Positions 6,298 through 60,043 of a stretch of 64,000 nucleotides of DNA are shown here, piece after piece. How positions within the stretch are numbered: the stretch's first letter is position 1; the number at the start of each line of letters is the position of its first letter. The stretch spans positions 267,344,001-267,408,000 of the forward strand of contig OZ024742.1 in NCBI GenBank assembly GCA_964016885.1. The letters are read 5' to 3'. The notes under the pieces were generated by a model. It made no database searches and was not told the origin of the DNA. It saw only the letters and a program-made list of their open reading frames with translations. This DNA comes from Eledone cirrhosa. Taxonomy: Eukaryota. A program made the translations under genes and the position numbers.

Positions 6298-6335
6298 AGT
6301 TACAGAAGATCCCGTTAAGGGTGAAAGCAGCGATT
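6298..6335 (+). ncRNA. Degenerate minimal hammerhead motif in PLE pLTR
   Basis: CAGAAGA-TCCC-gttaa-GGGT-GAAA; a related copy of this pLTR end lies on the minus strand at about 58880-59040. Confidence 0.4.
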
Positions 6336-6455
6336 CTTTGCTTAAACTTTAATCTGTTATTTTAATAAATATTTGCTCTACGGTTCTTATATATTTGATA
6401 TATATTTATCCTTAATGAGCCCTCTTTGGATTTTAGTCTTCAAATTTATTATTAT

Positions 6456-6537
<82 letters not shown>

Positions 6538-18894: not shown

Positions 18895-19753
18895 CTAGAT
18901 GTATTTTTTATCCATGAAAGTTGCGTAATGACTTCTCGTTGATGAACGGGTTTATGCAGGTAGAGCACTCCACGTCAAGAGCTTAAAGGTGGTGATCAAG
19001 CGTAACAAATTCATCAGGTATAAAATAAACATAAACAAAAGACAGAAGTTACCTAATCGTATTTATTATTATACGTATTTCTGTAACACTGGCATGGAAC
19101 TGTTGTACAATCATTACAACAGCGACCTGCACCAGTGTAACGTCATCAGATGTTTACACAATTATGTGGGTGGTTCGATATGTGGTTGGCTAACGCAAAC
19201 ATACAGGTGCAGACCATTTGTAACGTTTGCACAGCGGCAACATGCTGGTATCACAGGTATACGTATAATAATAAAGATGATTATGTAACGTTTGTCTTAA
19301 TTATTTCATATATATGTACATACATACATACATACATATATGTACATACTTACACCCCCCCCCACACACATATATATATATATAGGTGTGTGTGTATATA
19401 TATGTATATATAAGATATTGATTAATACGTAACATCATTAATCATATTTTCTAACAAAAGTATAGTTTAACGAAAGTGTTAAAGCTAGTCACTGTTAGAA
19501 CATAAGGTGAGCTTTACTAATATAACATTTAAGTATTTACATTAAGAGCAGTGGAATCTATGGTGACTAGTCATCTATAATGTGTTTAGTACGATGAATT
19601 TCCTACTGATGATTGAGTTTTTCATCTTATGTTGCCTTCCAGTTATCGTTTCTCTCGCCCTCGTGAAACAACTGTATAGAAATATTGACATTTCGGAACT
19701 TTACCATCTGTTTAATTTCTTCGGCTTTCTGTGAAAGATTTCTTTGGCAATGC

Positions 19754-19829
<76 letters not shown>
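19754..19829 (+). repeat. (TATC)n microsatellite at the 5' flank of Tx1 element A
   Basis: Pure ATCT repeats. Confidence 0.98.
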
Positions 19830-20045
19830 CTTTACGATGGACACATGTGCTGAGCTCGCTCGGTAAGTTTTGTTTAAATTCATCCGGAAATTGTAAACTG
19901 TGAACTTTCATTTTTGTACCATTTTGTAGAGGGACTGCCAGGTCAAACTTTGATCTGGTCAGTCTCTCAAAATATTCTACGCCTTTAGGCGAAATAGTTA
20001 AACAAAAAAAAGTTTTTTCTTGTTGAAAAGTCAATATTTTTTAAG

Positions 20046-21601
20046 ATGGCCGAAGCTTCTTCACCAAAATTCGAAGGAGGAAAGGGCAAGATAAACTTAC
20101 AGCTTCCCCCTGACACTGTCACAGTAGCAGAGGTCAAGAAGAAAGGTCAGCCAGAGGAAGAATTCTCTCCACCTGTTAACCGACAACTTGACGTTGCCAT
20201 GGCAACAACCCAAAGAACCAGCGGCACCAGCAACAGCAACAACAACAATGCGACGGACGAAAACAACACCAATAACAATAACAACAACAACAAGACCAAT
20301 AACTGTGACAACAACAACAATGATAACAACAACACCACCAACGACAACAACAACACAAACAAACAAAGTTTCTCCTTCGCCGAGACGACAAGGAAAACCC
20401 TGGACTATCTGCCAGTAGATATAACCAAAGCGAAGGAGCTACCGGCAGATGCGAAAAAATATATAGTGTACGGGGAAAATGGTTAATTCACAATCCATTC
20501 CCCCCCCCCGGAACTAAAAAGCCAGAGACTCCTAAACACGGTCATGTTTAGGACAATCTCAAATAAAAGTAAAAAACCAGCTCAACCATCACAGAGTGAG
20601 ATAGAGCTGGTTTTAAAAGACGTCATGAAGGACATCACCTTCATTCAGAAGGATAGACTCTACGAGCCTCGAACTTGTAGTTCAAATGAGGCCCGAAAGT
20701 ATCGCCCAGATGCCTGAACGCGTCATACTGGATGATCTAACCTTCATCAACATTACCGTTGAGGGTAGACGGCCCTCGTGTTACCTCTGCGGAACCAGAG
20801 GTCACCTGAGGGCTGTCTGTCCCCAACTTAATAAGAAAACCCCAATCCTGCCTACACCACCAACAACTGCACAACCAACACAATCACCACAACTACCACT
20901 ACAAAAACAACCACCACAGCTCAAACCAAAACAAAACAATGTCCAACCCATCCCCTCCACTCAAAAAACAAAAACAATTTCCAAAACACCCGCACCGCAA
21001 ACACAATCCGAAAATATACCCCTCCCCCCCAACGCGGAAGATGACTCTAGTTCGTCGTCAGACGAGGAGGAGCACCTCCACACAATCAAAAGAAAAAAAA
21101 GAAAACACACCTCAGACACACAAATGAAAACAACCCCTCCCCAAAACATAACACTGACACCAACACAAAAGAGCTCACAACAACAGCAAATAAAAAACAC
21201 CACACAAAAACAAAAACATGCATACACATACATAAACACAAGAAACAAAAAAACTGTTAAACATTGTGTACAACAACAATCTAATAAAAACACAAGGGCC
21301 TAACTTCACCCAGGCAGGGGATTTCCCCCACCTCAAAATGATTAAGGCCCCACAGGACACCTATAAAACTTTAAAAAACAATTTTAAAGAGGACGTGGGT
21401 CCCCCCTGCGTCGGGCTCATTAACCGCGTCCTCATAAAAAACTACCCTACCCCCTCCCCAAACACCCACACAACTCCAAGCTCCCCAACCACACAACACA
21501 CTGATGCCCCTACACTTCCACAAACCACCACCCCACCCAACAACCCATACCTCACCCTAATGGAAATTGTGCAGCCCGATACCCGGGACGCAGAGAGGTA
21601 A
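20046..21601 (+). pseudogene. Tx1-A ORF1 (gag-like nucleic-acid-binding protein), frameshifted
   Basis: Poly-Asn N-terminus, SFAE motif, PERVILDD, zinc knuckle CYLCGTRGHLRAVC (20779-20820), Pro/Thr/Lys-rich tail; homologous to B ORF1. Confidence 0.8.
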
Positions 21602-21625
21602 GTGCCTTTTCTCTTCACCACCAAC

Positions 21626-23998
21626 ATGGCTATGCTAAGAGCAGGCTGTTTAAGTGCGCGTGGCCTGGGCTCAACTTGGAAGCAAGCAATGCTTCTAAAT
21701 GACCTCAGGTCACAACGTATAGATGTGATGGTTATTTGCGAGGCCCGGATCAGCAACGTGCGACAGCTGGCCCCCACCTTTGATGACTTTGAGATGCACG
21801 CATCTCTCTGTCAGCCCGGAGGTGGGGGTGGAGTTGTCGTTCTGCTGCAAAAACATCTGGGTCTCGCAACACAGATGGTACATTTGGACCCGGAGGGTTG
21901 ACTAGTGGTTCTGGACCTTGGCAGTGGTAAAGGCGGAGCGTTTAGGTTGGTAGCCGCCTACGGCCCTTTCGGGTCAATGCGGCCGGACTTCTTCCATCGT
22001 CTGGAGACTTTTCTGGGGACGTCCCGCTCCTTGCTATTAGTGGGGGACTGGAATGGAATCCTAGATGCACGCTGGGACTACGTAGGGGCCTGTCCCGATA
22101 GAGAGGGGTGTAATAGCCTCAAAGGGTTAATCGGTCGATTTGACCTGGCCGATAGATATCGACTAGATTTTCCGACTGCGCCAACCTGGACTTGGGCAAA
22201 TCGTAGCGGATCATCTAGGTCGTACCTAGATAGGTTCTTAGTTAGAATTAAGGATAAGGACTTTTTAAGTTGTCCAAAAATGCGCATGGTTGGCTATTCA
22301 GACCACAAGTTAGTGAACTGCATGATCAACCTTGACAGAACTCATAGACAGGGCCCCGGTTACTGGAAGCTCAACTTGTCCTTACCGGCAAGTAAGGCTT
22401 ACAGGGACCGGATTAGCACTTTAGTTAAGGAGCGGTTGACGGGCGCCATAGTCAACAGCAGGTTGTGGGGATCTCTCAAAAGAGAGATTAGAGTAGTCTT
22501 AATAGAATTTAGTAAGGAGTTAGCCTCCAATAGAAATAGGAAGGAAAGGGAGTTGGTAGATAGTGTAGAAGAGGCAATTAGAAGCGGCGACGTGGCCAGA
22601 GTGCTAGCGTCGAGAACGGACCTGGGCCAGTTCTTCGACGCGAAACACGAAGGCTGCATGGTCCGAAGCAAAATACGTGCTCTGGGAAACGAGGGGACCA
22701 AAGCTGTTAGCTGGGCCCGCGTGACAGAAGCCAAAAGAGGGAGCAGATCCACTATCCGGTCTTTGCGAGACCAGGATGGACGGGTGATCCTTGAACCTAA
22801 GCAGATGTGCGAGGCTTTTCAAAAGCACTTTGCCGGATTGTTCGGAAGGGGCGGGGGACGGTTGGGGACGTGGACTTCGGTCCATACCTCGACGGCCTGC
22901 CGCGTCTCTCGGAGAGGGAGGCGAAGTCCTGCGAGGAGCCGATTTCAGCCGCTGAGATAGAGGACGTGCTGAGCCAATGCGGCAAACGCAAATCCCCGGG
23001 TCTCGATGGTCTTCCATACGAACTATATCTAGCTATGCCGGACTTGGAAGAAGCGGGCTCCTATGGTGAGGAGATCCATCTGCTGTCAACACCCTTCGAA
23101 AGGAGGGCTGGGGATGCCGTGGCTAATGATACGTAAACACGCATTAAGGCTACGGCACCTTCAGGTATTCCTCTCCGGTCAACCGGTGTGGGCCCCGTTT
23201 GTGAGGCGAGCCTTTCCCAGACTCGTCTCACTCACCGAGCTGCAATCCTGGGTCAAGCAAAGACCGAGAAAACTGGGCGCCTGGCACACCGAGTGTGCCC
23301 AGGCGCTCACGGTTCTCTGGCAGGCGGATCCGGCTGTCAGTGGAGAATCCACCTCGTCATTCTACAGAGGGCTGGTGGTTAGCAGGTGCGACGACGCCCT
23401 CGGAGAAGCCTTAGGCATGGAGGAAGACGAACTGGCAAACCTGTTCGGTAGGACATTCAGCCCGGGACCCATGGATAACTTCCAGAGGTCGCTGGCCTGG
23501 CAATGCTACAGAAGGGCTCTGCCCGTTCGAGAAAGGCTCTACAGACACGGGCGCCCGGGTAGGGACCCATCGAAAAAGATCTGTCCCAGATGCGTGTGCG
23601 ACGAGGAAACCGTTGCACACGCACTGGTACACTGCTCGGGCATTGCCGATCTGTGGGGCTATGTCGAACAACTGCTGTCAAGGGTGGGACCGATCCGGTT
23701 GACCACCGAGTCTATTGTAACGATCAAGCCGCCTCCCCTCTTCAAAAACGAAGGAGAGGCGGTGTTAATGTGCGTAATAGCCATGGCGAAAGAGGTTGTA
23801 TGGTGGACGCGTCTGAAAGGACTGAGGTCAGACACCTTTCTCTCTGGCCAACAACTGGTCCGTTTCTTCCGATATCATTTCGGAAGAAGGATCAGGATGG
23901 AGAGAGAGGTGCTGCACCCCAGCCGTTTCTATGAAAGATGGGTGAAAGTGGCGAGAATGGCCCGTGTGAATGGGCCTTCACTCTACATCAGACTATAG
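21626..23998 (+). pseudogene. Tx1-A ORF2: APE endonuclease plus C-terminal Zn domain, RT core missing
   Basis: GCLSARGL, ICEARI, LVAAYGP, GDWNGILD, WTW..SRSYLDRF, SDHKLV, GYWKLN, KSPGLDGLPYE, then a direct jump to KGGLGMP...CPRC. Confidence 0.9.
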
Positions 23999-24261
23999 GT
24001 GAGGAAGATGAAAGACCAAGGGAGCACCCCTTCTCTGTGCTCCTGAGGAGAAGGGTTGCACACTTTTTTCGGGGGTGTGTCCGACCCCACAAGGCGCCTC
24101 CTCTCTATTGAGGACTTTATTATAAATTATATTTTTTGTTATATTTTATTTTATTTTTATATATTGTTATTGCCTCCTCCTTATTGAGGACGCCTTGTTT
24201 TGTAAACTCCCCCATTGTACTTGTCCCACTTTTGATGCCTTGGTGGCAAATAAAAGAAACA

Positions 24262-24310
<49 letters not shown>
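24262..24310 (+). repeat. (TATC)n microsatellite
   Basis: Pure repeats after the Tx1-A 3' end. Confidence 0.98.
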
Positions 24311-24460
24311 CTTTTATTTTTTGTTATATTTTATTTTATTTTTATATATTGTTATTGCCTCCTCCTTATTGAAGACGCCTTGTTTTGTAAACTCCCCCCA
24401 TTGTACTTGTCCCACTTTTGATGCCCTGGTGGCAAATAAAAGAAACATATCTATCTATCT
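24311..24460 (+). mobile_element. Second, about 135 bp Tx1-A 3' end followed by (TATC)3
   Basis: Near-identical to about 24130-24261, ending aaataaaagaaacatatctatctatct. Confidence 0.9.
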
Positions 24461-24669
24461 CTCTGACGCGTGGAACATCGCCGGTAAGATTTTTTGTAAA
24501 TTTATATACGAAAAACAGAACAAATTGTTTGAAAAAACATATTATTTTGTAGATTAACCACCAAGCTGAATTGTCAGCTGGGTGGTAATCCCATTTTTCG
24601 CCCCTATAGGGGCGAACATTTTATTAAATTAATTGTTTTAAAATAAAAAAAATGTGCAAACTATAAAAT

Positions 24670-26584
24670 ATGAATAACACGAAGGGAACGCTGGAGAACG
24701 CCAATAGAGAAAAGAGAGAGAAAGAGGCAGATTTTAACGTTATATCTGCTTCTGCTACTATGGATGTCGCCATAGATACGACTGTCAACAAAGAGGAAAA
24801 AATGTTACCACTCGAAAATTGTACAATTTTTACCGTCGAAGCGGAGAAAAATAACACCAACTCACATGAAAACACAGAAATTAAACCTATTAACATACAT
24901 ACACATGAAAAAGACATCAACAACTCCACAGATACATCTACACATAAAGTTTCACCTCGTCAAGGAACTGAGATTTGCAACACCGAGGCTAACAACGATA
25001 ACAACAACAACAACAGCAACACCGCACAAAAAAAGAAAATGTCTTTCGCTGAAACAGTGAACAAAAAACAAGATTTTATAAATATTGACATCTCCAATGC
25101 GAGAGATATGCTCCAGCAAGGGAGAACATTTGTAACTTTCGATTTATAACTTTAAAGGTGGGTTTAGAATTAACTCAACCCTTGAAATAAAGGAAGACAC
25201 AGGTCGTAGATCAGTCACCTTTAGGACTGTGTCCAATTCCACGAGAAGGACGATATTTGTTAGTCAAGCAGATATAGAAGCTACTTTCAAGGAAATTCTA
25301 GCAAATATCGATTTTCTCCAACGAGGAAAACAGTACGGAAGTGTTTCCGTACTGTTTAAAAGCGAGGCACTCGCCCCAAAACATTCTGTGACACAAATGG
25401 TGTCAAAAGCATTCACCTTTTTCCCTACATACATGGGGAAAAGGACACAAAAAATAAAAATAAAAAATATACCCCCAAATATTAAAATCTGGTGGATCTT
25501 GGCTGGCTTCGTAGAGCCAGAAACTGATATAATTCTTTTGATACGAAAGTTTATTCGACAAAGGTGAGTGGGTACTGATTTGGAGATTCTGTTGCAAAGG
25601 AGGCCGGAGAGAATCTCCAAAATACCCGAAAGAGTCGTCATTGATGATAACAACAAAATAAACATTTCGGTGCTTTCGCTGTGGTAACACAGCACACCTA
25701 AAAGCCTCTTGTCCTTCACAAACACACAACAACAACATCATTAAAAAAACACTATTACCATCACCAACACCAAAACAACCACCACCACTACAAGTACAAC
25801 GACAGACGAAACGAGCAACCACACCAAAACAAACAGACACTCAACCAACAACAACAGAAAAAAACAGAGACAACACCCCTGAATAACACAGCCCCACCAC
25901 ATCCCACTCCATCAAACACTACCACAAACACACACACCGAAATACCACACAACATACCCCTACCCCACACATCTGACGATGATTATTCGTCGACGGATGA
26001 AGCTGTTTCTACTTCTTTAAGTGAAGAAGAGGGAGAGCAGCGGAAATCTAAAAAACAAAAAAAGAGACACCACAACACCCCCCAAAAAACCTCCAATCAC
26101 CAACACCAACACACAACCACAGACACAAACAACAACACAAACAACACCACAGTCAAACATCCCTCTATTAGCAAAACCAACATCAACAGCACCAACAGCC
26201 CCAAACACAAGCACCCACCATAAAAAGAAAACTCCCGGTCGAACAACAAACTAAAACAGCACAACAAAAACACAAACAACAATACGCATACATCAACACA
26301 AATAACAAGAATTTGATGGAGGTCATCTTCCAAAACCCCAAGGTGGAGACAGAGGGCAAAACTTTCGTCAAGGCAGAATCGTCTCCACTACCTAAACTTA
26401 TAAGGGTTTCTATGGAAACCTATATTGACCTAAAAATAAATTTTCACAGGACGTGGGCAATCCCTGCCAGAAACCCATCAAATCAACCGCGTCCTATTAA
26501 ACTGTTTCCTCACCCCACACCAACACTCCATCCAGCACCCAAATGGAGATTGAACAACCCGATCTCCATGAAACGAAAAGTTAA
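24670..26584 (+). pseudogene. Tx1-B ORF1, frameshifted
   Basis: Poly-Asn, SFAE, PTYMGKR..KIKIKNIPP, PERVVIDD, knuckle CFRCGNTAHLKASC (25671-25712). Confidence 0.8.
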
Positions 26585-26625
26585 GTGCACCGTTCGCCCT
26601 TTTTCTCCAACTCTTCTTCACCAAC

Positions 26626-29600
26626 ATGGCTGGTTTACGAGTTGGAAGCGTGAATGTGTGTGGCCTAGTGATGCCCTGGAAACAGGGTCAACTTTTAAAC
26701 GACCTTAGGTCACACGGTATGGATGCGATAGCCATCACCGAGTACAGAATCCACAACAGGCAGCAACTAATCCCCATCTTATACGACTTTGAGATCTACG
26801 CATATCTCTGTCAGCCAGGAGGTGGGGGTGGAGTGGTTGTCATGTTTAGGAAGAACCTGGATGTCGAAGTACAGCAAGTACACTTTGACCCGGAGGGTAG
26901 ACTGGTAGTCCTAGACGTCAACAGTATTGGAGGTGGAGCCTTCAGACTGGTGGCCGTTTATGCACCGACCAAGCAATCGCAATCACGGCCAGTCTTCTTT
27001 ATGCGTCTAGAGTCCTTTCTGGGAACGTCTCGCTCCTTACTTTTAGTGGGGGACTGGAATGGTATCCTAGATGCACGATGAGACTATGTGGGAGCATGTC
27101 CCAGTAGAGCGGGGTGCAACAGCCTCAAAACTTTAATCGGCCAATTCCAACCGGCCGATAGGTATCGACTGCATTACCCGACTGCACCACAGTGGACGTG
27201 GGCAAACCGCAGCGGGACATCTAGATCGTATTTAGATAGGTTCTTCATTAGAGAAAGGGACAAGGAGATGTTAAGCTGTCCACGAATGCATATGGTTGCC
27301 TATTCAGATCACAAATTAGTCGTCTGCTTAGTCAACCGTGATAGAACACATAAACAAGGACCCGGATACTGGAAGCTGAACGTGTCGTTGTCGGCACGTA
27401 AAGCTTACAGTGAATGGGTAAGTAGACTAGTCAAGCAACAATTAACGGGAGCCATCGTCAACAATAGATGGTGGTACTGTCTCAAGAACACAATTAGAAT
27501 AAAATCGATAAGGTTTAGCAGAGAGTTAGCATTAGAGAAAAACAAACTAGAAAGAGAACTAATAGCCAAGGTAGAGGAGGCACTTAGAAGTGGCAATGCG
27601 GCTAGAGTGTTAGCGTCTAGAACGGCACTGGACCAGTTCTTCGATGCGAAACCCGAAGACTGCGTGGTCAAAAGCAAAACACGTGCTCTAGGAAATGAAG
27701 GAGCGAAACCTGTCAGCTGGGCCCGAGTGGCGGAGACAAAAAGTGGCAACACGTCCACGATTCGGTCTTTGAAAGATCAAAACGGACGCGTGCTACTTGA
27801 CCCCGCGATTATTTGAGCAGAACGACGGTGAGCCGAACGGGGCAATGAACTTTAGTTCATACCTCGACGGCCTGCCGCGTCTCTCGAACACGGACGCCGA
27901 GTTCTGCGATAGACCAATCACGGATACTGAGATCCGGGACGCTCTGGGCCGCTGCGGGAAACGCAAGTCATCCGGTCTAGATGGTCTGCCCTATGAGTTT
28001 TACATAGGCATGCCGGACTTGTTCTCTGGCATCCTCGAAGCCGTCTACTGCAATTGGCAGCAGAACGGGAGCATTCCCAGTTCTGCAGGAAAGGGCGTAG
28101 TAACGCTGATCAGGAAAGACGAGAACAAGAGGGACGAAATTAACAACTTCAGGTCCATAACTCTGCTCAAATCAGAGTTAAAGATTTTGGCCAAGGTGCT
28201 AGCGACGAGGTTGGCGCTTTTCGTCGAGAACATGGTAGGGAAAGCGCAAACGTGTGCAATCCCGACCAGGTCCATACACGACAACCTCCACCTCATGCGA
28301 TACATCATAGAGAGTGTGGGTAGTAAACCCGGCTTTGGTGGGGCTCTGATCAATTTGGATCAGTCTAAGGCATTCGATAGGATCGACCATCGATACTTGG
28401 AAGCGGTTCTCAAGGAGGCTGGTTTCGGTCCCGTGTTCAGAGACTGGATCGTGGCGATGCACACCAGCATCTGCTCGAGGGTCAAGGTGAACGGCTACCT
28501 ATCGGAGCCGTTCGCAATCACGCGTTCCATTCGACAGGGGTGTCCTCTCTCCTCCATTCTGTATGTATTGACTCTAGAACCACTACTGCGGAAATTGGCG
28601 CTGTTGCAGGGCATCTTCTAGAACCGGGACTGCTTAAAGCGGCGTCGGCTTATGCCGACGACGTGACGGTAATGGTGTCGAAAACCTTGGAAATCGAGGT
28701 AATCGGCAACTTACTGAAAGAACACGAAACGCTGACGGGAGCAAAACTAAACCCAGACAAGTCTGTCGGTTTGCAACTCGGTACGTGGAGAGGCAAACCG
28801 ATGACGTCCGACAGCATCGTTGGACGCTGGACGGACGGACCGGGGAACTTGCTCGGGATCTGGTTCGGTCCGACCTCCAGGTGGAGAAAAACTGGAACGA
28901 GCTCACGGCCAAGGTGTTTGCACTCACTCAGAAGTGGGCAGAGTGCAAACTGTCCTTGAAAGGTCGAGCGGAGGTGGCGAACACTTTCATAGCGTCCGTC
29001 ATCTACTACCGCTTGACTGTCGTGCCTTGTCCCCGTGAACACCTCGCCATGATGGAACGCATGCTCATCCAGATTCTGTGGAAGAAGCAGGCTCCGCTGG
29101 TGAGGAGATCCGTCTGCTGTCAGCACCCTTCCAACGGAGGGCTGGGAATGCCATGGCTGATGATGCGCAAACATGCGCTGAGGCTGCGGCGTCTCTAGGT
29201 ATTCCTCACCGACCCCCAACCGGTGTGGGCACCGTTTGTGAGAAAGGCTATCCCACAGCTCGTCTCGCTGACGGAGCTGCAGTCCTAGGTTAAGAACAGA
29301 CCGAAAACGATGGGCGCCTGGCACATTGAATGCGCTCGGGCGCTCACAATCCTGTCAAGCGGGCGCAGCAATCAGTGGAGACTCCACTTCGATATTATAT
29401 AGAGGGAGTGTAGGTTACAAGGGCGCCGACGTGCTCGTGGAGACTCTGGGCGTCGAAGACGATGAGCTCACTAGTCTGTTTGGTAGGACTTTCCGCCCGG
29501 GACCTATGGACAACTTCCACAGGTCCCTGGCCTGGAAGTGCTACCGAGGAGCTCTACCGGTTCGCGATAAGATCTACAGGCACGGACGCCCCGGCAGAGA

Positions 29601-30033
29601 TCGTTCCAAGAGGACGTGTCCAAGATGCGCGCAGGACATTGAAAAAGTCCTGCACGCAATTGTACACTGCCAAGGCGTAATCGACCTGTGGAACTATGCA
29701 GAACAACTGCTGTCGCGTATGGGACAAATCCAGTTGACTGCCGAGTCCATAGTAAGGATCAAACCGCCAGCTTCTTTCAAAAACGAAAGAGACGCGGTTT
29801 TCCTCTGTACGATGGCTATGCTGAAAGAAGTTATATGGTGGACGAGATTGAGAGGACTAAGGACAGATGCCTTTCTCTCCGGATAACAATTGATTCCCTG
29901 CTTTAAGTATCACTTTAGAAGGAGAATCAGAGTGGCGTGAGAAGCACTGCACCCCAGTAAATTTACTGAAAGGCGAGTGAATGAAGCGAAAATGGCCCGA
30001 GTGATTGGGCCTTCTATGTTTATAAACCTGTAG
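26626..30033 (+). pseudogene. Tx1-B ORF2: APE endonuclease, reverse transcriptase and C-terminal Zn finger
   Basis: GSVNVCGL, GDWNGILD, SYLDRF, SDHKL; NNFRSITLL..ELKILAK, LDQSKAFDRIDH, IRQGCPLS, AYADDVTV, GGLGMP, CPRC..E...HAIVHC; several stops and frameshifts. Confidence 0.93.
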
Positions 30034-30248
30034 GTTGAAGAAGAGAGCAAAAGGAAGAAAGGAGCACTTGCACAACACGCTCCTTCAGTTGATGGTTGTT
30101 CTATCGACGGGGTATTAAACAACCCATATTGGGGATTTCGATTGTTGTAATTGTTTGTTTTTATATTTTTTACACGACTGTATGTAAAATCCTCGGCATG
30201 ACTTTGTATTGTCCCCTTTTCTTGTGCGCCCTTGTGACAAATAACGAA

Positions 30249-30300
<52 letters not shown>

Positions 30301-30304
30301 GTCT

Positions 30305-30340
<36 letters not shown>
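30249..30340 (+). repeat. (TATC)n microsatellite at the 3' flank of Tx1-B
   Basis: ATCT repeats with one interruption. Confidence 0.97.
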
Positions 30341-30372
30341 GCATCTCTATCTCCCCCCCTCTTTCTCTCTCT

Positions 30373-30411
<39 letters not shown>

Positions 30412-30414
<3 letters not shown>

Positions 30415-30757
30415 CATAATTAAATTTGTCAGGTATATTCATAAAATCTCAAACGAAAGAGATCACTAAAGAGAACAAATTCAGAGAAGCTAATATATAT
30501 ATAGAATATCTAATCAAAAACACTGAAGGGTAGATCCCAGTAGTCAGGCTTCCTATATTTAGGTTGTTTGACTGTGCGTATATTCCTAGGAAAAGATACT
30601 TTAGAAGTGTTCTGTAGAGTACTTTAGTGGGATCTACCCTTCAGTGATTTTGTATAATATACTCTCTCTATATATTTGCTTATCGGAATTAGCTCTTTTT
30701 AATGATCTCAATTCATTGTAATTTTATGTATATTCGTGACAAATGTTATTATGTATA
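30412..30757. repeat. Diverged inverted repeat (pLTR-like); central part repeated directly at about 31025-31105
   Basis: cactgaagggtagatccca versus tgggatctacccttcagtg, with arms extending to tatacataat/attatgtata. Confidence 0.7.
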
Positions 30758-31129
30758 ATACATACTGCTCATAATAAATGATAAGCTGTTTGACAGCCTG
30801 TTATTTCTTGTGGCTTTTTAGGCCTGTCATTTTGTATGTATGTAAAATATTTACACCATGCTAGATCGATGAGAGATGACAAAGTTTTCCCCAACAGGTA
30901 TCTATATTATTCTTATACATTATAGAATCTTTCCGATCAGGAACTGCTCTGGTAATGATGGCCATATCAATATATTGAGATGGGTAGATTTAATGCCATG
31001 GTTCAGAAACTGCAATCAAAGTGATTTTTAGGTTGCTTGACTGCGTATATCCCTAGGGAAAGATTCTTATGAAGTAATCTTTAGAGTGCTTTACTGGGAT
31101 CTACATCCCCGTCCCCCTCTCTCTCTCTC

Positions 31130-42289: not shown

Positions 42290-44105
42290 GGTGGAGGTCA
42301 TTGGAGGTAAATGCGACTGCGATCAGGCTCCCACAGAATGCTGTGCAGACGGCAGCTGCAGGAGCGGAGGAGGATGACAGTTGGCGTGAACTTCGACGGA
42401 ACAAAGATGCTGTCGTGACTGCTGCTGCTCGCGCTTGAGAGGATGAAGGACGACGTGCTGTTCGACGAAGCAAGGACGCCACTGCAACAGCCGCTGCTCG
42501 CGTTCGAGAGGATGAAGGACGACGCGCCGTTCGACGAAGCAGGGACGTCGCTGCCACTGCTGCTGCACGAAATACTGAAACCATAGAGCAACGACGTGGC
42601 CGACTTCTGCAAAGTGAACAGCGGCGATCATCGTTACCTGGCATTTCTAGGACTTTTAATTCACGATGATTGTTGAAGGCCTTTAACTACGACCCCTATA
42701 CCGACTACGCTGTGCTTGCCTGGAAACCTGCACGTCTACAATTCGCTTAACACTATGGCTGCTCCGAACGAAGTTGTTAATTACCCCACATCATTTTTTA
42801 ACTCCCTAGACCCTCCCGGATTGCCACCACACTTACTGTGACTTAAGAAAGGTGCCCCTGTTATGCTCCTCAGGAATTTGGATCACCGAAGGCTTTCCAA
42901 CGGCATGCGTCTGGTCGTCCAATGGGCGATGTCTTATGTTATTGACGCAACAATACTTACATGATATGGTAAAAGGGATACTGTCTTTATACCAAGGATA
43001 CCTCTCATTCCATTCGGTAAAGACATTCCTTTCACATTCAGAAGGCTGCAATTCCCTCTGCGGCTCAGTTTCGCCATGTCGATTAACAAATCACGGTCAG
43101 ACGCTGACTGGCGTAGGGCTTAATTTAGAAGAACCATGCTTCTCCCATGGTCAACTATATATTGGCTGCTCTCGAGTGGGGAGCCGACATAACCTATTTG
43201 CTTTTGCAACTCACGAGAAAATCCAAAATATAGTCTATAAGGAAGTTTTGTAGGCAGCTCATCCGCCAACAAGTAATCACTGTTTTCCTTTGTATAAGTG
43301 CTTACATTTGTTGTATTCGTGTGCTATTTTTGTCCCTTTGACAATACCACGTAAGTCTCTGTGGTTGCTTTTGCTATACGTTATAAATGTTCAATGTTTC
43401 CGTTTTCCGCATGTATATGTTGCTATTACGCTTTGCTATCGATGTTCCTAATTAATCTACTTTTCCCTACATCTTATTTACACATTTTTTTACATTCCAG
43501 CTTGATCTTGCCAAGGCCGTTTTTGTGGCCACCGAGTGTTACATGCTTTTCTAGGTTACGATCTCAAATAACAAGCAAAGCAAATACGACACACCAAAGT
43601 GGTGTGAAGGACTTCTTAAGGGCCACCACCTCTAATCCGAGTCGTCTTTGCTGACAGCTCTGCCGCTGAGACTTTTAAGAGTGAACGATCCAGGGCCCTC
43701 TTCAGGGCCACCAAGTTTAAATTGTTACCATTGGATTCATCTTTTGTGGCAGCACCACCGCTTAGATATTTCAAAGTGAACGTTAAAAGGTCCTCTTCAG
43801 GGCCACCAACTATAAATTGTTATCTCTGGATTCGTCTTTGCTGGCAGAACCGCCGCTGAGACTTTTAAGACTGAACGATCCAAGGCTCTCTTCAGGGCCA
43901 CCAAGTTTAAATTGTTACCATCGGATCCGTCTTTGTTGGCACCACCGCCGCAGAGATATTTCAAAGGGAACGTTCAAAGGACCTCATTAGGGCCATCACC
44001 TATACATTGTTACTTCTATAGTCGTGTTTAACGGAAGTCTTTCGGTTCATTTGAACGACTACTCCATTGAGAGTTATACCAGGCAACGCAGGGTACCTCT
44101 GCTAG
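42290..44105 (+). mobile_element. Internally deleted Helitron
   Basis: N-terminal R/E/A-rich repeats plus AFNYDPYTDY, fused to a PIF1-helicase C-terminus (FNSLDPPGLPPH.L.LKKGAPVMLLRNL, RLQFPLRLSFAMSINKS.GQTL, FSHGQLYIGCSRV, NIVYKEVL*); 3' hairpin plus CTAG at 44077-44105. Confidence 0.88.
43616..44015 (+). repeat. Subterminal minisatellite in the Helitron, about 95 bp units
   Basis: agggcca(c/t)ca at about 43619, 43704, 43799, 43894 and 43989. Confidence 0.88.
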
Positions 44106-56395: not shown

Positions 56396-59040
<2,645 letters not shown>

Positions 59041-59073
59041 TCTATATATAAATAGATAGATATATAGATAGAT

Positions 59074-59575
59074 TTCTATTTATTGCCACTATGGCGCAAA
59101 AGAAGGGGACAGATACAAGGGGGTAGTTTATACAAAAAGGCGAGTAAAGAAAACAAATAACAAATATAAAATTAACAATAAAGTCCTTAATAGGGAGGGG
59201 CTTTTGAGGGGTCGCACACCCCCCCGAAAAAAGTGTGCAACCCCTTCTCCTCGGGAGAACAGAGAGAGGGTGCTCCCTCGTTCTTTCCTCTTTTCCACCT
59301 ACAGGCTGATGTAGAGAGAAGGCCCATCCACACGGCCCATTCTCGCCACTTTCACCCACCTTTCATAAAAACGACTGGGGTTAAGCATCTCTCTCTCCAT
59401 CCTGATCCTTCTTCCGAAATGATATCGGAAGAAACGGATCAGTTGTTGGCCAGAGAGAAAGGTGCCTGACCTGAGTCCTTTCAGACGCGTCCACCATACA
59501 ACCTCTTTCACCATGGCTATTACGCACAGAAACACCGCCTCTCCTTCATTTTTGAAGTGGGGAGGCGACTTGATG
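59074..59575 (-). mobile_element. 5'-truncated Tx1 family A copy with ATCT tail
   Basis: KNEGEAVFLCVIAMVKEVVWWTRLKGLRS..YISL plus 3' UTR; followed on the minus strand by atctatctatatatctatct (59053-59073). Confidence 0.92.
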
Positions 59576-59749: not shown

Positions 59750-60043
59750 AACCCCTCTCTCTTTTTTCTAATACGCTAATTCTCTCTTTCTCTCTCTCTC
59801 ACTTCCTCTCTCTCTTTCTCTACAGAATGGTGAACAATCAACAACGCGCATTGTCGTCTGTGTATATATATATATATACACTATATAAATGTTAATTTCT
59901 GTGTATTTCATAAAGAAATTTCAAACAAAGCAGACGACAATGCGCGTTGTTGATTGTTCACCATTCTGTAGAGAAAGAGAGAGAGGAAGTGAGAGAGAGA
60001 GAGAAAGAGAGAATTAGCGTATTAGAAAAAAGAGAGAGGGGTT
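59750..60043. repeat. Near-perfect inverted repeat, about 110 bp arms
   Basis: acccctctct...gcgcattgtcgtctg versus cagacgacaatgcgc...agagaggggt. Confidence 0.92.

Follow-up and report, generated by a model that had tools for sequence, protein, structure and literature searches.

L1/Tx1-group retrotransposons stacked behind their own TATC tails in Eledone cirrhosa: possible re-insertion guided by the RNA 3' end

In a 64 kb window of the Eledone cirrhosa genome (contig OZ024742.1; all positions are numbered over the whole window) three retrotransposon copies of the L1/Tx1 group were found head to tail on the plus strand, A (19832-24261), A' (135 nt, 24313-24447) and B (24463-30248), and a fourth copy, C (59074-59574), was found elsewhere on the minus strand. 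None of the four 3' ends carries poly(A), and each of them runs into TATC repeats. Together with tail-to-copy joints at other loci and with the arrays of a sister clade, this anatomy suggests a poly(A)-less lineage of the L1/Tx1 group that re-inserts at its own 3' junctions, guided by the 3' end of its RNA, a reading to which we assign a probability of about 0.55 on the basis of sequence comparison. The original prediction, made from the letters of the window, was a dedicated system targeting GATA/TATC repeats. The link with TATC proved genuine, whereas the idea of a dedicated system with a fixed register was weakened by the short founding site, the flank of C and the spacers of the sister clade.

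Anatomy of the stack and its founding site

At all four 3' ends an AATAA(A/C) motif is followed by TATC after 3-7 nt, and the predicted 3' ends without poly(A) were thus borne out in 4/4 copies. The tail of A measures 49 nt and is followed by CT (24262-24312), that of A' measures 13 nt and is likewise followed by CT (24448-24462), that of B extends over 30249-30340 with an interruption at 30301-30305, and C has a short, imperfect tail (59052-59073, minus strand). Counted as runs, TATC occupies 19754-19829, 24262-24310, 24448-24460, 30249-30300, 30306-30340 and, imperfectly, 59073-59052 on the minus strand. All four perfect AGAT-class runs of at least 16 nt in the 64 kb touch one of the elements, as expected if long TATC arrays are restricted to them; away from them the window has four further TATC runs, of 10-13 nt, and the 146 Tandem Repeats Finder (TRF) rows for the window are chiefly (TA)n and (CA)n. 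A microsatellite at the 3' end of the copy, which is the feature of microsatellite-seeding long interspersed elements (LINEs), is present in 4/4 copies. A and B are 71-74% identical and represent different families. A' is a 5'-truncated piece of the family-A 3' untranslated region (UTR) with 96.7% identity to A, and C, also 5'-truncated, is 82% identical to A. Element A retains its 5' end and has a broken ORF1, and B is full length and decayed. A dispersed repeat starts about 10 nt past the tail of C (58881-59041) and is present again at 6298-6457 with 91% identity, with a (TA)n end at both places.

The outer edges of the stack carry a repeated sequence. In the whole window ATGCATCT has just two occurrences, one at each of these edges (19750 and 30339); two chance occurrences of an 8-mer would be unremarkable, and the evidential weight lies in their placement. 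The left copy (19750-19831, plus strand) consists of ATGC, (ATCT)19 and CT, and reducing its array to one unit leaves ATGCATCTCT at its end, the sequence of the right copy at 30339-30348, where there is a single ATCT unit. The window contains 475 background ATCT sites, and ATGC stands before none of them. The outer repeat of the stack reads as a target duplication, the left (ATCT)19 having apparently expanded after insertion. To its right lies a compound C/(TC)n/(TA)n microsatellite (30349-30418), at the edge of which the stack was founded. Assuming duplications of 10-18 bp, the empty site would have contained about 1-3 ATCT units beside the (TC)n(TA)n tract; it was not a long TATC array.

All three 5' junctions of the cluster read ATCT|CT, and the common phase noticed earlier was thereby confirmed as an observation. 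The C of the CT before A' is missing from the sequence of A at the corresponding place, and the common CT is most likely the end of the duplicated target, handed on with each insertion. Given that the three junctions would in that case descend from one duplicated site, they amount to one observation of register and not to three.

Stacking at other loci and in a sister clade

Reads of four of the seven sequencing runs listed were compared with positions 24296-30264; the runs share at most 0.31 of words and may come from another species. Copies were found along the whole of B in these other-genome reads, and at least four joints were seen in which a TATC-tailed 3' end leads into a truncated copy (24460 to 28953, 24464 to 28968, 24464 to 28989 and 24459 to 30207). 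The joint 24464 to 28989 was present in the restriction-site-associated DNA (RAD) run X5 and in a contig of X3, which is another sample, and the joint 24459 to 30207, which could also reflect the likeness between the 3' UTRs of A and B, was present in X2. Microhomology of 2-3 nt to the tail was observed at 3/4 joints. The stacked copies have independent 5' truncations, represented by A' in the window and by 28953, 28968, 28989 and 30207 elsewhere. These four additional joints indicated that stacking is not peculiar to this locus and recurs behind TATC tails. The earlier proposal that a usable target is regenerated at the 3' end of the element was supported. No CT was found at the three joints for which the inserted letters were displayed; given this, and the descent of the CT junctions in the window from one duplicated site, the proposed cutting of (TATC)n in a fixed register was not upheld. 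A metagenome scan gave 79 loci with 23-46% identity, none of which had a TATC-class run of at least 14 nt and all of which are too distant to inform on this question, and none of 72 pattern matches in viral contigs was confirmed.

A scan of prokaryote genomes gave 44 loci, 39 of which came from host-like contigs that were binned in one metagenome-assembled genome (MAG), G001, and that encode a sister clade with about 42% identity to the octopod query. These array contigs are most likely host DNA binned by mistake: more than 12 contigs of this bacterial MAG (loci L080-L116, L119 and L120) consist mostly of eukaryotic retrotransposon arrays with intact ORF2s. The 39 loci and 13/18 further regions, five being left out as 5' ends only or duplicates, provided 65 distinct 3' ends. 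Of these, 60 run into another same-strand copy within 60 nt; of the other five, one leads to a rearranged copy and four to unique flanking sequence. Poly(A) and TATC were each found at 0/65. One array is about 70 kb long, ORF2 is stop-free in 20/20 copies checked, and the spacer starts 0-3 nt past AATAAA. Given that this sister clade stacks with non-repetitive spacers, TATC would be this branch's version of the spacer and not the cause of stacking. Apart from microsatellites, the flanks of the sister arrays had nothing in common with the window.

The 18-nt duplication at the two ends of array C17 repeats its own spacer, and in L122, a solitary copy from another MAG, a duplication of 16-17 nt begins immediately behind AATAAA. 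The spacers are unrelated among eight families, the endonucleases of which are 9-24 of 235 residues apart, and the endonuclease hairpin loop is identical in 10/11 representatives of these families; neighbours of mixed family were found in 0 of 34 overlapping loci. The spacers of array C19 show differences at 2-3 of about 17 nt and its ORF2s at 0-2 of 3465 nt, and this far larger variation of the spacers points to separate insertion events. One and the same spacer precedes two different 3' flanks in C9 and in C19, which indicates that spacers can move between loci. Array C9 also contains two copies with the same truncation, an exact block duplication, and near-identical copies occur in some arrays; such exact duplications indicate that unequal exchange also acts.

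Coding regions, relationships and 5' UTRs

ORF2 of A (21626-23998, plus strand) is interrupted by a single stop (21899) and by a frameshift near 22835-22870, and at 23045/23046 about 1.03 kb of the reverse transcriptase (RT) core is missing. ORF2 of B (26626-30033, plus strand) has apurinic endonuclease-like (APE), RT and zf-RVT domains and contains five stops and about four frameshifts. The endonuclease is N-terminal (PF03372, E 1.2e-7 in B and 9e-4 in A) with DWN, LDR and SDH motifs in both elements, the RT of B matches PF00078 (E 6.5e-18), and the C-terminal zf-RVT matches to PF13966 (E 5.8e-6 and 4.7e-5) lie just under the curated cut-off. A CCHC zinc knuckle is a feature of Tx1-type ORF1; the motif is visible in the ORF1 region of B, and the zf-CCHC match in A (E 0.016) is below the cut-off. 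About 100 codons that precede the zinc knuckle in B are apparently absent from ORF1 of A (20640-20700), which would be a further internal deletion in this element. A profile of 21 relatives matched human L1 ORF2p with E 4e-140 as compared with 5e-45 for R2. By their endonuclease, RT and zf-RVT domains and the profile match, the elements are APE-RT retrotransposons without long terminal repeats (LTRs) of the L1/Tx1 group. The predicted Tx1-like identity held at this level; the elements are candidate members of the Tx1 clade proper, the backbone of the trees being weak.

The nearest named proteins were those of Argonauta hians (63-66%), which was also the only species named in protein-cluster look-ups. 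In two quick RT trees, which were made without named Tx1L, Kibi or Koshi references, B grouped with the Argonauta hians proteins with a Shimodaira-Hasegawa-like approximate likelihood-ratio test (SH-aLRT) value of 99 and adjoined the sister clade, which has ORF2s of 1150 residues (99 and 95). The U2-inserted Keno-like loci L004 and L009 were placed on another branch, and the backbone was weakly supported in both trees. In these Keno-like elements (L004:4675-4885 and L009:5815-5977) an A-rich tail runs into U2 small nuclear RNA (snRNA), and TATCT occurs by chance at the U2 junction. The endonucleases of A and B are 68% identical. Searches of solved structures with a single endonuclease gave no retrotransposon match under E 0.1, and a protein atlas search returned generic RT clusters only. 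In Rfam searches of the cluster eight matches were found, all far below the gathering score, and no ribozyme; folding of the 3' UTRs in A, B and C gave nothing better than shuffled sequences did (z -0.2 to -1.6).

The 5' UTRs of both families in the window contain a splice-donor-like GTAAG followed at a similar distance by TTTTGTAG. In A (19863-19968, plus strand) the two motifs span 67 nt and are followed by a 40-nt hairpin at 19929-19968, and in B (24484-24618, plus strand) they span 69 nt and are followed by hairpins at 24552-24590 and 24596-24618. No other such pair occurs in the window. The hairpins directly after the stretch have z values of -5.9 and -6.9, and in the two-sequence consensus of A and B both sides have changed in 4/9 pairs. 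In the sister clade GTAAG is located 48-129 nt behind the upstream AATAAA at 54/60 junctions, which are near-copies of about nine families; the hairpin after GTAAG is kept (e.g. L087:10474-10590), and in some families the donor is paired in a hairpin of its own. An intron in the 5' UTR was considered and is weakened as an explanation: the sister clade retains the donor, and an equidistant acceptor is not clear there. In stacks GTAAG, 40-130 nt behind the upstream AATAAA, may instead bind U1 and suppress polyadenylation at that site, as U1 does in the 5' LTR of HIV-1. If this is true, both the missing poly(A) and a read-through into the spacer would be explained.

Other features of the window include long inverted repeats resembling miniature inverted-repeat transposable elements (MITEs) at 59750-60043 (87% self-match) and 30404-30764 (72%), with (TC)n or (TA)n ends, and a Penelope-like element at 58555-56976 on the minus strand, in which a 347-residue frame with an RT-like YRDD motif precedes a second frame that matches GIY-YIG weakly (E 0.0026). 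Tandem repeats of 69 nt (42392-42566) and 95 nt (43642-44013) are located in G+C-richer sequence.

Re-insertion at the 3' junction and its alternatives

From this anatomy we infer read-through, pairing and loose nicking, in the following order. The RNA would extend a few bases beyond AAUAA into the spacer, here (UAUC)n, the APE domain would nick with a loose preference, and target-primed reverse transcription would start best where the nicked strand pairs with the RNA end. Every insertion would create a new tail besides duplicating the target, and this tail would be the best target for the next copy; slippage would extend the tail and seed (GATA)n microsatellites. The founder in the window was probably B, inserted into ATGCATCTCT at the (TC)n(TA)n edge, and A' and A would have followed at the same cut. 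That A and B share a TATC spacer would mean that their families can mix, and the families in G001, with different spacers, would stay apart. A broader proposal, which we regard as tentative and on the whole doubtful, is that the target is heritable, RNA-encoded and changeable: each family would have taken up an earlier target duplication, which would form the 3' end of the family's RNA and serve as a short priming guide, and near-identical endonucleases would in this way come to be associated with different sites and with arrays of their own. In octopods the guide would be TATC, GATA microsatellites would spread as a result, and suppression of polyadenylation by U1 at GTAAG would form part of the same system.

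Several observations weigh against re-insertion at the 3' junction. C has a TATC tail, but its 5' flank is not TATC and no target-site duplication was seen there. That B preceded A is judged from the stop counts (5 versus 1), and dating by mismatches at conserved residues did not separate the two elements (9 versus 7 of 94). The read joints were among 15 of 480 that were listed, alongside 12 of 179 entries with inserted letters and 24 of 6046 loose ends; for a joint to be detected, both of its sides must lie inside the reference. In the sister clade the outer 5' flanks match the spacer over at least 16 nt in only 3/6 cases, the match being weak in C19, C4 and C3. Family-pure arrays can also be grown by unequal exchange, and binning into one bacterial MAG favours arrays over dispersed copies. 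Finally, the endonuclease loop of A and B is nearly identical and unlike that of the sister clade, which also fits a preference for TATC that is encoded in the protein.

Microsatellites are the described targets of the Tx1 elements Kibi, on (TC)n, and Koshi, on (TTC)n, and of crocodilian Tx1 families on (TTCC)n and (TTTC)n (passages of PMC4494074 and PMC3812793). By analogy the APE domain would recognise and nick TATC/ATCT repeats and the tail would mostly be duplicated target. These are likewise L1/Tx1-group APE-RT elements within microsatellites of similarly pyrimidine-rich make-up (PMC4494074, in part), the founding site ATCTCTATCT adjoins a (TC)n tract, TATC is at the joint in all other-locus stacks among the matches listed, and the hairpin loop of A and B is alike at 17/18 residues, with their endonucleases 68% identical overall. 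The same loop is the one that was grafted in work on L1 endonuclease specificity (PMC1950540, in part). The present elements nevertheless differ from these families: none of the four target repeats stands on both flanks, the unit being TATC, with only about 1-3 units at the founding site and a repeat-free 5' side in C. The presence of the target at over 20% of flanks serves as a criterion of such specificity in PMC4494074; in the window TATC adjoins the 5' side at 1/2 independent insertion sites. Moreover, the CT register is confined to this stack, and the nearest clade with visible flanks stacks without microsatellites, in families that share the loop and not the spacer. We consider targeting by the protein unlikely, if a serious competitor.

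It is still less probable that TATC is merely an encoded 3' repeat, with seeding as in the CR1-L3 elements of snakes, and that stacks arise through template jumping, read-through concatemers or later unequal exchange with no preference for a target. The tail of C, which has no TATC 5' flank, would fit this, as would the position of the whole stack inside a single outer duplication, the block duplications in C9 and the near-identical copies in some sister arrays. However, A and B belong to different families and have decayed unequally, a CT derived from the target at all three internal junctions is not expected of a concatemer, the stacked copies differ in their truncation points, and within one array the spacers vary far more than the ORF2s. 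Chance nesting in a repeat-rich region might be considered in view of the 56 Mb and 80 families of L1-Tx1 in Octopus vulgaris (PMC13282606, in part). It is strongly disfavoured by a cut that is common, to the base, to three copies and by at least three further tail-to-copy joints inside about 40 nt of reference beside one restriction site. The number expected by chance is at most 0.05, a rough figure that assumes 1e4-1e5 tails, a 2.5 Gb genome and about 25 visible truncations.

Re-insertion at the 3' junction has relatives among known systems. Double insertion is known to give rise to tandem arrays, as in R1, jockey and P dimers (bioRxiv 10.1101/158386, in part), and tandem SINEU-3 copies around a target-site duplication have been noted (passages of PMC4494074). 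The present stack resembles them in its head-to-tail copies with duplicated target in between, in its independent 5' truncations and in the outer ATGCATCTCT and common CT of the window; unlike those tandems, which use a fixed host target or a weak motif, each family here apparently has its own spacer, and two families with the same spacer mix. Pairing of RNA with the target as a way of priming has precedents in SART1Bm and R1Bm, the RNA of which is proposed to anneal to the nicked strand through a short target-like stretch at its 3' end (PMC7265360, in part). These elements differ in belonging to the R1 clade and in having fixed ribosomal DNA or telomere targets and highly specific endonucleases, and SART1 needs poly(A) as well. 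The CR1-L3 and Rex LINEs that seed microsatellites in snakes also spread a microsatellite from a 3' tail; they are of another clade with the unit AATAG, and the relevant passages of PMC6050309 state that ATAG, which is the present unit, showed no adjacency to transposable elements, and do not describe self-stacking. Papers on cephalopod repeats list L1-Tx1, with no target named in the passages concerned (PMC13282606, PMC8967140). A Tx1 lineage that targets TATC/GATA or stacks on itself was not found in the literature searched, among the matches listed; Repbase and Dfam lay outside this search and may already include such a family.

How APE retrotransposons gain or switch target specificity is poorly understood, as stated for microsatellite targeting in PMC3812793 (in part). 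The families of the sister clade are young and have intact ORF2s; their endonucleases are 90-96% alike, their spacers differ and their arrays are pure by family, which makes the choice between the protein and the RNA end, a matter of about 17 bases, directly testable. If the RNA end does steer insertion, this would be a simple natural principle of retargeting with relevance to RNA-based gene insertion; if the elements were only TATC-cutting Tx1 elements, they would be one more entry among the known microsatellite targets. Self-stacking across the lineage with family-specific spacers is in this respect a more interesting result than the cutting of GATA repeats, and it is a possible source of the (GATA)n microsatellites and of the satellite-like retrotransposon arrays in these genomes.

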